A program made the translations under genes and the position numbers. The notes under the pieces are model-generated. The model saw nothing but the letters and a program-made list of their open reading frames with translations, made no database searches and was not told the origin of the DNA. Of a stretch of DNA of 64,000 nucleotides, positions 1,013 to 56,589 are shown piece after piece (positions within the stretch are counted from its first letter, which is position 1; each line of letters begins with the position of its first letter). Where the stretch lies: the NCBI GenBank assembly GCA_022792395.1, contig JAAWAX010000046.1:4513-68512 (forward strand), written 5' to 3'. Origin of the DNA: Clostridia bacterium (GTDB lineage: Bacteria > Bacillota > Clostridia > TANB77 > CAG-508).

Positions 1013-1089
1013 AGTTTCCCCACCAGTTCCGGGTTTAAATGGGGAAATCTAATAAATTTCCCCATTTAAACCCGGAACTGGTGGGGAGA
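1013..1089. repeat. palindromic intergenic repeat, copy A (arms GTTTCCCCACCAGTTCCGGGTTTAAATGGGGA / revcomp, loop AATCTAATAAATTT)
   Basis: A perfect inverted repeat of about 32 bp visible in the sequence. The same element recurs at 7481, 8514, 21269, 52089 and 56514. It lies between convergent genes, so it likely also acts as a bidirectional terminator. Confidence 0.85.
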
Positions 1090-1121
1090 AATAAACTTGT
1101 TCTAATTTTTATTTATAAAAA

Positions 1122-2003
1122 TTAGATAATTTCTAATGTTCCCCAATTTTTTAAAATACTTTTTGGAATATTTAAGTTTCCTCTACCTATGCCTAGTTTA
1201 ATTCCTGGCTTGTTATTAGCATGGTAGTCTGTGCCACCAGATATAAGTAGATTATTTTCTTTGCAATAATTTAGTAAAAATTGAGTTTGAGAATTAGTAA
1301 AAGAATTATAATAACATTCTATACCATCTATTGGATAATTTTTTGTGAAGATTTCAAAAAATTTTATAGAATTATCACCATACATATAAATATGAGGTAT
1401 AAAAACTAAACCACCAGCACTTTTTATCAAATTAATAACTTCACTAATGGAAGGATAAAAATTAGATTTATCGATAAAAAATTTACTTTTAGAATTTGTC
1501 ATACATCTTCTGTAAAAAGTATTACTATTTTGCCAAGAATCTACATCATCAAAGAATTTTTTATTTTCGGAATTTTTAATAATTTCTTTCCAAATAACAT
1601 CGCCACAAAATTCATTATCAAAATTAATTTGTATCTTATCATAGTTAATTTTGACTCCTAATTTTTTGCATATTTGTAGCAACTGTTCATATTGATATTT
1701 ATTATCTTCAGATTCACTTTGATATATTTTAGGAAGTTTATCATTAAAAATTTCAGTGTCTATATTATAAGCTAATAATTCGACTGTTTGTCCTTCTATA
1801 GATGTATAAAGTTCACAGCCCTTGATAATTTTTCCAGAGAAGTATTGCTTTACATCTAAAGTTTTAAGTTCATTGTATCCTTCACATGTGACATGGTCTG
1901 TTATAGATAATACTTCTATGTTCGATTTTTCAGCATTTTTAAGAAGGGTTATTAGATTATCAGTACCATCTGAATAGGTAGTATGTGTATGTAAATCAAT
2001 CAT
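1122..2003 (-). CDS. PHP-domain phosphoesterase, TrpH/YciV-like (nucleotide/pAp-type phosphatase)
   Basis: N-terminal MIDLHTHTTYSDGT and C-terminal GGTDYHA are the His/Asp metal-binding motifs of the PHP fold. The length of about 290 aa matches the TrpH family. Confidence 0.7.
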   Translation of the reverse strand: MIDLHTHTTYSDGTDNLITLLKNAEKSNIEVLSITDHVTCEGYNELKTLDVKQYFSGKIIKGCELYTSIEGQTVELLAYNIDTEIFNDKLPKIYQSESEDNKYQYEQLLQICKKLGVKINYDKIQINFDNEFCGDVIWKEIIKNSENKKFFDDVDSWQNSNTFYRRCMTNSKSKFFIDKSNFYPSISEVINLIKSAGGLVFIPHIYMYGDNSIKFFEIFTKNYPIDGIECYYNSFTNSQTQFLLNYCKENNLLISGGTDYHANNKPGIKLGIGRGNLNIPKSILKNWGTLEII

Positions 2004-2147
2004 ATTGACACATCATCCTTTCGCTACAATATAAATATAATATATCATAGTAAGAAAAAAAAGGCAATTCTACATAATGTGTTGAAATTTGGTAAAAAAT
2101 GTAATATAATATTGTACAGATAATAAATAGAAAGGGCGATATAGGAA

Positions 2148-3200
2148 ATGGAAGAAAAAACTGGATTATTTGTAGATAGCTTCCCTATACTACATTCTGG
2201 ATATGAATTATGTATAAAATATGCGTTGCAACAAGTAGATAGATTAATAGTAATTGTTTATGATAATAATGAAACAAAAGTGCCATTAACAATTCGAGCT
2301 AACTGGATTAAAGAATTATATCCAAGTGTCGAAGTATTTGAATCATGGTCTACAATGGAGGGAAAAGATTTAACAGCAACAGGATTTCAAAAAAAAATTA
2401 TTGATAAAGCATTAAATGGAAGTCAATTAAACAAATTTTATTCAACACAACCAAATATGGGGCATTTAACAAATACTTTAGAGTGTAGAAATGAAATAAT
2501 AAGTAGTATAGCTGAAAAAATGAGAAAAAAGACTATGGATATTCAAGCAAATAATTATAAAAATATATCAAGAATGAGCCCAAATGTATATAAAGATTTG
2601 ATAACAAGAGTAGCATTTGTTGGAGCACAGTCTACAGGAAAATCAACAATAACAGAGGCTATTGCGAAGAAGTATAACACGGAATATATGTTTGAATATG
2701 GAAGATATCATTGGGACATTTATGAGCAAGATAGAATAGAAACATTGGAGCAAATTTTAGAGATAACACAAAGACATTTACAAATGGAAGATGAAAGAGT
2801 TATAAAAGCTAACAAATATTTATTTAGTGATACATGTCCATTTGTAACACTTAGATATGCATATGATTGGCATGGAAAAGCGAATCCAGAAATTCTAAAA
2901 TTAGCTCAAGAGGCACAGTCAAGATATGATATTATATTTTTATGTGGAGATGACATTCCTTATGCAGATACACCTGAAAGAGATGGGATTGAGCAAAGAG
3001 ATAGTTTTCAAAGACAGATAAAATATGAGTTAGTATCAAGGAAAATACCGTATATTGAACTTAATGGTTCACTGGAAAAAAGAATAGAAAAGGTAGATAC
3101 AATATTAAATCACTATGAAAAATATTCAAGTTTAAGTCAAACTATTAAGAAAATTGAACAAGAGAAAGTGAAAAAAGAAAAATTAGATATTGAGAGGTAA
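2148..3200 (+). CDS. NadR-like bifunctional protein: nucleotidyltransferase-like domain plus P-loop nucleoside-kinase (RNK/AAA_28) domain, no HTH
   Basis: Collinear with E. coli NadR residues about 60-400. FPILHSGYE corresponds to the NMNAT HxGH motif but reads H-S-G-Y. VAFVGAQSTGKST corresponds to the RNK Walker A GGESSGKST, followed by EYGR. Confidence 0.6.
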   Translation: MEEKTGLFVDSFPILHSGYELCIKYALQQVDRLIVIVYDNNETKVPLTIRANWIKELYPSVEVFESWSTMEGKDLTATGFQKKIIDKALNGSQLNKFYSTQPNMGHLTNTLECRNEIISSIAEKMRKKTMDIQANNYKNISRMSPNVYKDLITRVAFVGAQSTGKSTITEAIAKKYNTEYMFEYGRYHWDIYEQDRIETLEQILEITQRHLQMEDERVIKANKYLFSDTCPFVTLRYAYDWHGKANPEILKLAQEAQSRYDIIFLCGDDIPYADTPERDGIEQRDSFQRQIKYELVSRKIPYIELNGSLEKRIEKVDTILNHYEKYSSLSQTIKKIEQEKVKKEKLDIER

Positions 3201-3202
3201 AA

Positions 3203-55012: not shown

Positions 55013-55054
55013 ATTTTTGTTCCAATGTTAAGTGAAATAAATTTTATTTAAAAG

Positions 55055-55118
55055 AAAAAAGTGACATGCCTAAATTTCCAACCTTTTTGGATTGGTAATT
55101 TAGGTATGTCATTTTTTT
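55055..55118 (+). terminator. rho-independent terminator after recN (long stem, TTTTTTT tract)
   Basis: AAAAAAGTGACATGCCTAAATT ... AATTTAGGTATGTCATTTTTTT. Confidence 0.65.
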
Positions 55119-55224
55119 GTTTATATAATAGAAAAGTCATATAGCAATCAGTCCACTATTGTTCTTTTTTGCATAAAATAGAAAAAAATGGATAAAATGA
55201 AAAAGAAGAAGGGAGAGTATAGAA

Positions 55225-56500
55225 ATGAGAGATTTTTTAGAAATTGTAGATGTTAGAGGTTTAGAAATTTTAGATTCAAGAGGAAATCCAACTATACAAG
55301 TAGAGGTTGTGCTTGAACGGAGGATTTCGAGGAATTGCATCTGTGCCATCTGGTGCATCAACAGGAAGTTTTGAAGCAGTAGAATTAAGAGATGGAGATA
55401 AAGGGAGATATTTTGGAAAAGGTGTTCAAAAAGCAGTAGAAAATGTTAATAAAAAAATAGCTAAAAAAATAATAGGAATGAATGCTTATGAACAAAGAAA
55501 AATAGATCAAGAATTAGTAAAATTAGATGATACACCTAACAAATCTAATTTAGGCGCTAATAGTTTATTAGGAGTATCGTTAGCCGTTGCAAAAGCGGCA
55601 GCAGAATCTTTAAATATAGAATTATACCAATATATTGGGGGAATTCAAGCTAAAGAATTACCAGTTCCTATGATGAATATTTTAAATGGTGGAAAACATT
55701 CTGAAAATAATATCAGTATTCAAGAATTTATGATTATGCCAATTGGTGAAATAACTTTCCAAGAAAGATTAAAAAGAGGAGTAGAAGTATATCATACTTT
55801 AAAAAAAGTGTTAAAAGAAAAAGGTTATGCAGTGGGTGTTGGTGATGAAGGTGGATTTGCACCTAATTTGGAAAATGAAGAACAAGCACTAGATCTTATA
55901 CTAGAAGCAATTAAAAAAGCTGGATATGAACCAGGAAAAGACATTGTATTGGCATTAGATATTGCTAGTACAGAAATGTACGATGAAGCACAAAAAATAG
56001 GAAAAGAGGGATATTATTTTTGGAAAACGAAACAAATGAAAACAAAAGAAGAAATGATACAATATGTAGTTAATTTATGTGAAAAATATCCAATTGTTTC
56101 AGTAGAAGATGGGTTAGCAGAGGAAGATTGGGAGAGTTGGAAAGAACTAACCAATCAGTTAGGAGATAAAGTACAATTAGTAGGAGATGACTTATTTGTA
56201 ACAAATCCAAAGCGATTGAGAAATGGAATCGAAAAAAATATAGCAAATGCTATTTTAATTAAACCAAACCAAATTGGAACGCTAACAGAAACATTGGATA
56301 CTATCTATTTGGCAAAAAGCAATGGATATAAAACTGTTATTTCACATCGTTCTGGCGAAACAGATGATACAACAATTGCTGATATAGCAGTTGGTGTCAA
56401 TGGTGGGCAGATAAAAACAGGAGCACCTTGTAGAATTGATAGAGTAGCTAAATATAATAGACTTTTAAAAATTGAATCAGAATTAAATACTTTATCATAG
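55225..56500 (+). CDS. eno: enolase (phosphopyruvate hydratase), frame interrupted by a 1-nt insertion at about 55318
   Basis: [31 protein letters not shown] (frame 1) then [28 protein letters not shown] ... in the +1 frame. The rest of the protein is intact. Confidence 0.85.
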
Positions 56501-56513
56501 AAGAAATTAAAAA

Positions 56514-56589
56514 ATTCCCCACTAGTTCCGGGTTTAAATGGGGATAGTTATTTGAACTATCCCCATTTAAACCCGGAACTAGTGGGGAA
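56514..56589. repeat. palindromic intergenic repeat, copy F (perfect; the loop itself is palindromic)
   Basis: TTCCCCACTAGTTCCGGGTTTAAATGGGGATAGTTATTTGAACTATCCCCATTTAAACCCGGAACTAGTGGGGAA lies between convergent eno and the vWA gene. Confidence 0.85.

Follow-up and report, generated by a model that had tools for sequence, protein, structure and literature searches.

Repetitive extragenic palindromic sequences (REPs), the bacterial interspersed mosaic elements (BIMEs) and REP doublets forming hairpins (REPINs) are short, high-copy intergenic hairpins that lie mostly just downstream of genes, as in the E. coli REP-YafM system (structure 4ER8) and the REPINs of Pseudomonas. They occur as singles, as inverted doublets forming long hairpins and in clusters. 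Their partner is the REP-associated tyrosine transposase (RAYT), a Y1 HUH enzyme encoded by a single-copy, vertically inherited gene that sits between inverted units, an arrangement known as a REPtron. Each lineage has its own repeat sequence, which varies together with the enzyme, and copies are occasionally found in frame within genes (PMC3733652, PMC3116915, PMC6006769). Classical REPs have been catalogued mainly in Proteobacteria, and REP families in Firmicutes were not reported in the survey of Di Nocera et al. (PMC3733652). Here we analyse a family of palindromic repeats in a 64,000-nucleotide stretch of DNA from a Clostridia bacterium (assembly GCA_022792395.1, contig JAAWAX010000046.1, positions 4,513 to 68,512; the whole stretch is hereafter called the window), for which an initial annotation had suggested REP-like behaviour. 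The properties listed above all recur in this family. The hairpins and the RAYT-like gene linked to them support that suggestion, and we conclude, with a probability of roughly 0.78, that the repeats are REP-type elements of a REP/RAYT system in an uncultured, low-GC lineage of gut Clostridia.

We take this to be a system of known type in a bacterial group where it is new, rather than a novel sort of element. The REP/RAYT picture now takes in an uncultured gut lineage of ~28% G+C, and what is new lies in the lineage, in an unusual pattern of conservation and in an unusual, fixed locus for the enzyme. A second set of described systems has to be kept in mind for the comparison, namely the TIRYT/TIRtron systems (Di Nocera et al. 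2013, PMC3733652), in which long RAYT-like proteins with a helix-turn-helix (HTH) tail are flanked by inverted repeats carrying the motif GGGGWSAS. In later classifications, the counterparts of TIRYTs are probably TnpA_Y1 subclass 2.1 (Quentin et al. 2018, PMC6006769) and RAYT group 1 (Bertels et al. 2017, PMC5581495), the latter reported in Clostridia. Subclass 2.1 was reported without REP-like hairpins nearby (PMC6006769), and in the literature this HTH-bearing branch is one that lacks REP hairpins and has been co-opted for an unknown host role.

A hairpin unit with a nearly invariant loop

Nine clear arms of the repeat are present over six loci in the window, against a chance expectation of zero in dinucleotide-preserving shuffles, which confirms the copies initially annotated at these loci. 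The 32-nt arm GTTTCCCCACTGGTTCCGGGTTTAAATGGGGA has seven matches in the window at three mismatches or fewer and its 20-nt core GTTCCGGGTTTAAATGGGGA has nine, and a profile search of the window with nhmmer returned the same nine arms together with short fragments. The arm had rightly been described as GC-rich for its genome (53% versus ~28% G+C). All window copies are intergenic.

The family had been defined as one of 75-bp palindromes. The palindromes are real, but the basic unit is smaller: it is an arm of ~35 nt that is itself a hairpin, with a stem of 6-9 bp (TCCCCA/TGGGGA) closing a loop of 17 nt, CTGGTTCCGGGTTTAAA. Each ~75-bp palindrome accordingly consists of two such units, joined as an inverted doublet in which the 3' ends face each other. 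The stem follows the pattern (A[TC]G)TCCCCA / TGGGGA(C[AG]T) and is frequently extended by ATG/CAT, ACG/CGT or GTG/CAC. A similar correction applies to the variable loops attributed to the palindromes: the spacer between two units does vary, but the unit's own loop is its most conserved part, with ~97-100% conservation at each position among 158 distinct units.

The stem, by comparison, changes in a compensatory manner. Stem pair 7:33 is C-G in 100 units, T-A in 14 and G-C in 3; pair 8:32 is C-G in 119 and G-C in 13; and pair 5:35 is G-C in 55, T-A in 10 and A-T in 6. As a control, shifting the 3' partner by one column abolished stem pairing. Relatives have even swapped the whole stem while leaving the loop unchanged (GTCACCA/TGGTGAC, TTGCCA/TGGCAA and ATTGCCA/TGGCAAT), and these stem swaps under an invariant loop constitute a natural mutagenesis series for studying what such an enzyme reads. 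No Rfam family matched the window at the gathering threshold, a permissive scan gave only unspecific matches of the miRNA-precursor-like, long-hairpin kind, and a tRNA scan of the window found none.

A RAYT-like gene between inverted cognate hairpins

A dedicated protein, such as a RAYT, had been proposed to recognise the repeat. A protein of this kind exists: in all of the related lineages that we examined, a gene for a RAYT-like Y1 enzyme has cognate arms on both sides. In a related metagenome-assembled genome (MAG), an open reading frame (ORF) situated between arms (L012:1951-2721) has a Pfam match to Y1_Tnp at 1e-10. The best NCBIfam match of the family is REP_Tyr_transpos, at 61-68 bits versus 17-22 bits for IS200 (67.9 versus 17.5 bits for the L012 ORF). 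This enzyme has 1762 homologues at E < 1e-5, many of them on contigs of ~1 kb, a length one would expect if the gene stands between repeats. In 29 homologues the HUH motif (H59/H61), Y119, N123 and P124 (Y---NP) are invariant, and the next motif, YSS, is invariant or nearly so.

A search of the PDB with a single RAYT sequence gave nothing meaningful, and a profile and a structure model were needed. The family profile found 4ER8, the E. coli RAYT, as its best match. Similarly, an AlphaFold2 model of one family member, P0015 (mean pLDDT 84.5), had as its top Foldseek match 4ER8, in which the RAYT is bound to a REP hairpin (E 3.6e-8, target TM 0.70), ranking above the TnpA proteins of IS608 and ISDra2. 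The enzymes are 243-261 aa long, and the P0015 model shows a confident extra helical C-terminal domain (residues 183-245), on which Pfam HTH families give only sub-threshold matches (E 0.016-0.7). P0015 is encoded in GCA_949747655.1, and the arm upstream of its gene (CTTCCCCA...TGGGGAAAT) belongs to the subtype found in the window. As the window sequence matches this assembly at 99.8% identity (and part of GCA_948661065.1 at 100%), the enzyme is present in the window's own species. We regard the transposase gene as a domesticated, RAYT-like Y1 HUH gene, single-copy and vertically inherited.

The gene order gdpP-rplI-dnaB-RAYT-tilS-ftsH is kept while RAYT protein identity falls from 88% to 49%. 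Because this syntenic position is fixed, the enzyme gene does not move with the hairpins. There is a single copy at the fixed position, and extra copies were seen only twice: a second, frameshifted RAYT paralogue without adjacent arms in one MAG (L062:6062-6803), and a short Y1_Tnp gene of 166 aa near dnaJ in another lineage (L095:11552-12052). Every dnaB-RAYT-tilS locus has an upstream cognate hairpin in the same orientation, a few bases past the dnaB stop and 120-220 nt before the gene. Downstream of the gene there are one or two inverted copies, commonly in frame within tilS, between the SGGPDS and VAHVNH motifs. Such inverted cognate flanking was found in L012, L081-84, L089-91, L092, L093, L094 and L095.

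Metagenomes gave the same picture. Among 120 metagenome loci retrieved by the loop pattern alone, 11 carry the RAYT gene, which is flanked in most of them, typically as [arm arm]-RAYT-[arm arm inverted]; one of these loci (L172) has both the gene and an arm of the same subtype as in the window. Copies that flank the RAYT gene share their stem type with the dispersed copies of the same lineage. In the most distant lineage (L094) the hairpin is a different one, TTGTCAA[TAGGGACGCCCCTTT]TTGACAA, in the same layout.

The in-frame copies are worth describing in their own right. Units in tilS were located at L012:1700-1762, L081:4003-4061, L089:3961-3988, L093:~10880-10950, L095:7977-8036 and, in decayed form, L085:~3600-3700. 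They add ~10-45 residues to TilS, the product of an essential gene, throughout the clade, and their stem type follows the lineage. In another related MAG, an in-frame single unit (L001:3799-3831) encodes RPHLNPEPMGT inside a 426-aa glycoamylase-like ORF. In-frame copies thus alter annotated proteins such as TilS.

Dispersal and arrangement of the units

The motif is not peculiar to the window, since its core and its loop occur in many MAGs and metagenomes. The exact core was found in at least 80 stretches from at least eight species-representative MAGs of uncultured Clostridium or Clostridia. The 80 genome loci and the window together contain 133 arms, and a reversed control pattern had no match. 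The loop pattern was found in at least 120 metagenome stretches, mostly from gut assemblies and with a median of 28% G+C; 120 of these loci contain 312 arms. The loop is kept across species whose flanking genes are only ~80% identical. This is a dispersed REP-like family and not part of an insertion sequence (IS). Presence or absence of individual copies differs between species, and some copies persist at orthologous sites. The units are mostly extragenic (only ~2 of 71 clusters, those at contig ends left out, are truly intragenic) and usually lie ~0-20 nt past a stop codon. Where the flanking genes are co-directional, 37 elements are nearer the upstream stop and 15 nearer the downstream start (p = 0.003), with a median of 17.5 nt between core and stop. 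Two other origins were rejected. For a phage origin, there were no exact core matches among IMG/VR viral contigs; for CRISPR, the repeats are not direct repeats at regular spacing.

Contig ends often fall inside the repeat, and in the window's own species the doublet at 21269 interrupts the majority of short-read assemblies. In practice the repeat thus fragments MAGs, its perfect 75-bp palindromes breaking short-read assemblies of these genomes. Such contig ends were seen among L105-L111, some of them with garbled sequence (e.g., that of L105). Separately, at the site orthologous to the doublet of L014, L026 has a different direct repeat of ~36 nt (CCATATTGTCGGCTTTTGGGACAGGCAC...) at ~5640-5760.

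Arrangements were counted over the 80 genome loci and the window. There are 60 singles, 23 inverted doublets of the '+-' type and 14 direct tandems, and no doublet of the '-+' type. The gaps in doublets range from 2 to 135 nt, and the 3' ends always point inward. From one species to another, a given orthologous intergenic site can carry one unit, a doublet or a tandem. Several observations concern the doublet as a whole: the spacer AATCTAATAAATT is common to the window doublets at 1014 and 7481, the spacer caattcttaatg is common to two loci of another genome (L027 and L073), arms within one doublet differ by 5.7 mismatches per 39 nt versus 9.8 for random pairs, and private variants are shared by both arms of a doublet. 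As spacers recur and the arms of one doublet are alike, doublets can be copied whole, as proposed for REPINs. On the other hand, singles and tandems are as common, and singles and doublets interchange at one site, which speaks against the doublet as the replicating entity.

Partial direct copies were observed beside full units at many loci (e.g., L010:3520-3560, L011:6660-6730, L059 and L069; in the window, 21342-21356 and 8506-8529/8616-8632). Some consist of the 5' half of the stem and stop at unit positions 10-18, and the others are a 3' module, CCGGGTTTAAATGGGGAC or TAAATGGGGAC. Their breakpoints cluster only loosely, the ends of 5' fragments tending to fall at arm positions 10-14 and the starts of 3' fragments at 16 or 23, and complete tandem units next to them confound this pattern. 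These partial copies could be footprints of cleavage and rejoining, nested insertions or products of replication slippage.

Under the REP/RAYT interpretation, the Y1 HUH enzyme would recognise the hairpin, loop included, in single-stranded DNA, and would cut and rejoin it, so that units and doublets are copied or moved into intergenic DNA. Selection would then spare the least harmful copies, namely those just past stop codons or in frame in tolerant protein loops. The placement of the elements near stop codons agrees with this. The stem would co-evolve with the enzyme lineage, and paired units with facing 3' ends would behave like REPINs. What the sequences show directly is the family, its hairpin unit with compensatory changes, its spread over genomes and species, its constant linkage to the RAYT gene and the copying of doublets together with their spacers. 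We infer catalysis and mobilisation by the RAYT, and likewise its cleavage site and any benefit to the host, for example protection of mRNA 3' ends.

Evidence against the REP/RAYT interpretation and alternative explanations

Several results weigh against this interpretation. Here a 17-nt loop is conserved and the stem varies, the opposite of classical REPs, in which the stem is conserved, the loop is short or variable and a GT[AG]G tag is present. The canonical 5' GT[AG]G tag of RAYT-associated REPs was looked for at the stem foot and not found, the bases 5' of the stem being A/T, T/C/A and G/T, followed by TCCCCA; for this reason we do not file the family as a canonical GTAG REP. The NCBIfam RAYT scores given above fall under that model's curated cut-off of 80 bits. 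No RAYT gene was found in the window itself by tblastn, and in the window's species the arm upstream of the gene is intact while the downstream copies inside tilS have decayed. Signs of movement are also wanting: at the two window sites compared among strain assemblies, both fixed in all of them, neither insertion polymorphism within the species nor recent transposition was seen, and no clean insertion junction or target-site signature could be resolved at sites of presence or absence between species, at ~80% identity. Finally, single arms show no replication-strand bias by GC skew (27 versus 29). IS200/IS605 elements are known for lagging-strand targeting, and the absence of bias gives no support for such targeting here.

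The alternative that survives best, though we hold it to be improbable, is that the units are structural or regulatory hairpins selected by the host (mRNA 3' stabilisers, attenuators or sites for a loop-reading protein) and that the RAYT-like gene is domesticated, its link to them being regulatory rather than replicative. The placement of the elements is what one would expect of such hairpins, as they are strongly concentrated just after stop codons (see above). A role as mRNA 3' protectors is a possible one. The extreme conservation of the loop across species with flanking genes ~80% identical also fits host selection, as do the fixation of the examined sites within the species and the retention of some copies at orthologous sites across species. 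Moreover, RAYT groups other than 2 and 3 have been published as co-opted single-copy genes without REPINs (bioRxiv 10.1101/2021.07.10.451892; PMC5581495). However, units occur in both orientations relative to flanking genes and GC skew, so that one RNA-level function cannot cover them all. This, the lack of a U-tract after the hairpins, the copies in frame within coding genes, the decayed, truncated and stuttered copies, the copying of doublets together with their spacers and the variation in presence or absence between species fit a replicating element better than host-selected hairpins.

Miniature inverted-repeat transposable elements (MITEs) offer another, very improbable explanation, in which the ~75-bp palindromes would be internally deleted ISs with terminal inverted repeats of ~32 bp, moved in trans by a DDE transposase, and the singles would be solo ends. 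Doublets with inverted termini and interiors of 2-135 nt, in a size range typical of MITEs, agree with it. Yet no target-site duplication was seen at the window copies or at sites of presence or absence, about half of the elements are single arms or direct tandems, and the arm is itself a hairpin with compensatory stem changes. In addition, the only transposase consistently flanked by arms is the Y1 HUH enzyme, and no IS with these ends was found in ~1.4 Mb of loci. We consider the MITE explanation largely refuted.

The least credible alternative is a set of Rho-independent terminators sharing their sequence by descent or convergence, a role that the initial annotation had also entertained. 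G+C-rich hairpins after stop codons agree with it, but no T-run directly follows the hairpins (their tails are AAACTCGG, AAAACGAT and AGAAATAA) and a terminator scan does not flag the doublets, so that they are not canonical intrinsic terminators, copies also lie between divergent gene starts and inside genes, a separate conventional hairpin with a T-run stands 3' of the copy at 56513 (~56609-56636), and a near-identical 17-nt loop over more than 300 copies is not expected of terminators.

Comparison with related systems

Besides the missing tag and the inverted pattern of conservation, the REP/RAYT system described here differs from the classical ones in its enzyme, which has ~245-260 aa including the helical C-terminal domain versus 165 aa in E. 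coli, and in having the enzyme gene locked between dnaB and tilS. In several respects it looks like the TIRYT / subclass 2.1 / group 1 branch, a likeness that we draw from published descriptions. The RAYT-like protein is long, its C-terminus may be HTH-like (with the sub-threshold Pfam matches noted above), and the flanking inverted repeats lack GTAG. Some TIR families are self-complementary, moderately abundant and found as singles, dimers and clusters, as is the case here. The TIR motif GGGGWSAS resembles the 3' stem end TGGGGACAC of several MAGs. Among arm ends compared with this motif, GGGGACAC fits it, while GGGGACAT, GGGGACGT and the window's GGGGAAAT do not, and relatives have GGCAAT. 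A clear difference concerns the hairpins: none of the REP-like kind were reported for subclass 2.1, whereas here clearly covarying hairpins flank the gene and form a sizeable dispersed population.

These comparisons lead us to a combined reading in four parts, which we offer tentatively, as it is rather doubtful that all four hold together. The family may provide the first clear case of a REPIN-like population linked to the RAYT branch that bears an HTH domain (TIRYT, subclass 2.1, group 1), and this in Firmicutes. Recognition may be centred on the invariant 17-nt loop, where the nick site might lie, as it does in rolling-circle Rep origins. The enzyme gene may have become locked between dnaB and tilS with its right-hand hairpins kept in frame in an essential gene. 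Lastly, the 'stutters' beside arms may have been left by cutting and rejoining in the loop or close to it. The long HTH-bearing RAYT branch, poorly understood so far, would gain in this family a concrete DNA partner that can be put to the test.

Two further kinds of element share single properties with the family. Rickettsia palindromic elements (RPEs) and intragenic REPs also provide in-frame units in protein genes, as seen here in the relatives' tilS and in the glycoamylase-like ORF. The sequence of RPEs is unrelated, though, and the copies in the window all lie outside genes; we know of no transposase associated with RPEs. The ends of IS200/IS605 elements and the rolling-circle Rep origins are likewise DNA hairpins acted upon by an HUH/Y1 enzyme, and Rep nick-site hairpins share the combination of a conserved loop and a covarying stem. 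The difference from IS200/IS605 is that the enzyme gene does not travel with the hairpins and that there is no IS-like, multi-copy transposase gene.

Copies and neighbouring features in the window

Full inverted doublets are present at three loci of the window, with arms of 34-35 nt, 97-100% complementarity and loops of 1-5 nt. The copies had all been placed 3' of genes, which is a slight overstatement: it holds for five of the six loci, at 0-18 nt from a stop codon (the doublet at 21269 even overlapping one), but the sixth, at 8506-8632, lies between divergent gene starts. The states of the copies at 7481, 8506 and 52089 (a doublet with a truncated arm, a decayed composite and a single arm, respectively) agree with their earlier description.

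The first copy, at 1014..1090, is a REPIN-like inverted doublet with its + arm at ~1014-1048 and its - arm at ~1055-1090 (35-nt arms, 97%, around the 13-nt spacer AATCTAATAAATT). It is located between convergent genes, an ORF at 142-1002 (+) and a PHP-domain ORF at 1122-2003 (-). The doublet at 7481..7550 has a truncated left arm: the + arm is reduced to its 3' half (7490-7507), and the - arm (7513-7549) is complete. It lies 13 nt beyond the stop of a cation-efflux gene (7563-8423, -). On the other side of this gene, between its start and that of an ORF at 8718-9056 (+), is the decayed composite copy at 8506..8632, in which the - arm is recognisable at 8571-8606, the + arm is degenerate (~8531-8565) and outer inverted fragments of the arm's 5' part occupy 8506-8529 and 8616-8632.

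The doublet at 21269..21341 is perfect, with 34-nt arms that are 100% complementary around a 5-nt spacer. It overlaps the G of the TAG stop of the ORF at 20409-21269, with the PBP1 gene (21460-24240) downstream, and as single-stranded DNA it folds at -44.6 kcal/mol (z -15). Its right arm is abutted, at 21342..21356 on the - strand, by a 'stutter' fragment, a partial extra copy of the arm's 5' part (the reverse complement of CCCCACTGATTCCG). The unit at 52089..52122 (+) is a single, a hairpin of TTTCCCCA and TGGGGAAA around the 17-nt loop. It begins right after the TAA stop of whiA, ends 28 nt 5' of a hemN-like start and is identical in eight other assemblies of the species. The last copy, at 56513..56591, is again a perfect inverted doublet (35-nt arms, 100% complementary), situated 13 nt past the enolase stop and between convergent genes.

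Just upstream of the single unit, whiA (51218-52088) is divided between two ORFs that overlap, one of 89 aa and one of 209 aa. Most of the eight other assemblies of the species show this division as well (86-89 aa plus 199-209 aa), the gene being differently broken in the rest, and the split looks real rather than a sequencing error.

Other palindromes are found in the window. One with 30-nt arms (TTTAATTGGGGACAGTTCTTTTTGCACATT and AATATGCAAAAAGAACTGTCCCCAATTGAA) follows the ORF at 8718-9056, at 9059-9134. At its ends it is similar to the repeat's 3' part and to the GGGGWSAS motif from the literature, and its interior is unrelated. We rejected it as a member of the family, as it shares only the GGGGAC-type ends and has no copies elsewhere among the 111 loci searched. 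Two unrelated, unique palindromes are located at 49293-49332, with perfect 19-nt arms directly after the ORF at 46653-49292, and at 44690-44740, with 24-nt arms.

Two copies of the repeat had been thought to bracket an accessory island. This is not supported, because the copies nearest to the polysaccharide cluster are 9.5 and 11 kb away, with PBP1, argS and other housekeeping genes in between. The cluster itself (30779-41100) is a low-GC (22-27%) region for polysaccharide biosynthesis with no repeat copy at its borders, and encodes a sugar transferase, GT4 and GT2 glycosyltransferases, a glycerophosphotransferase, EpsG, a flippase, VanZ and Wzz.

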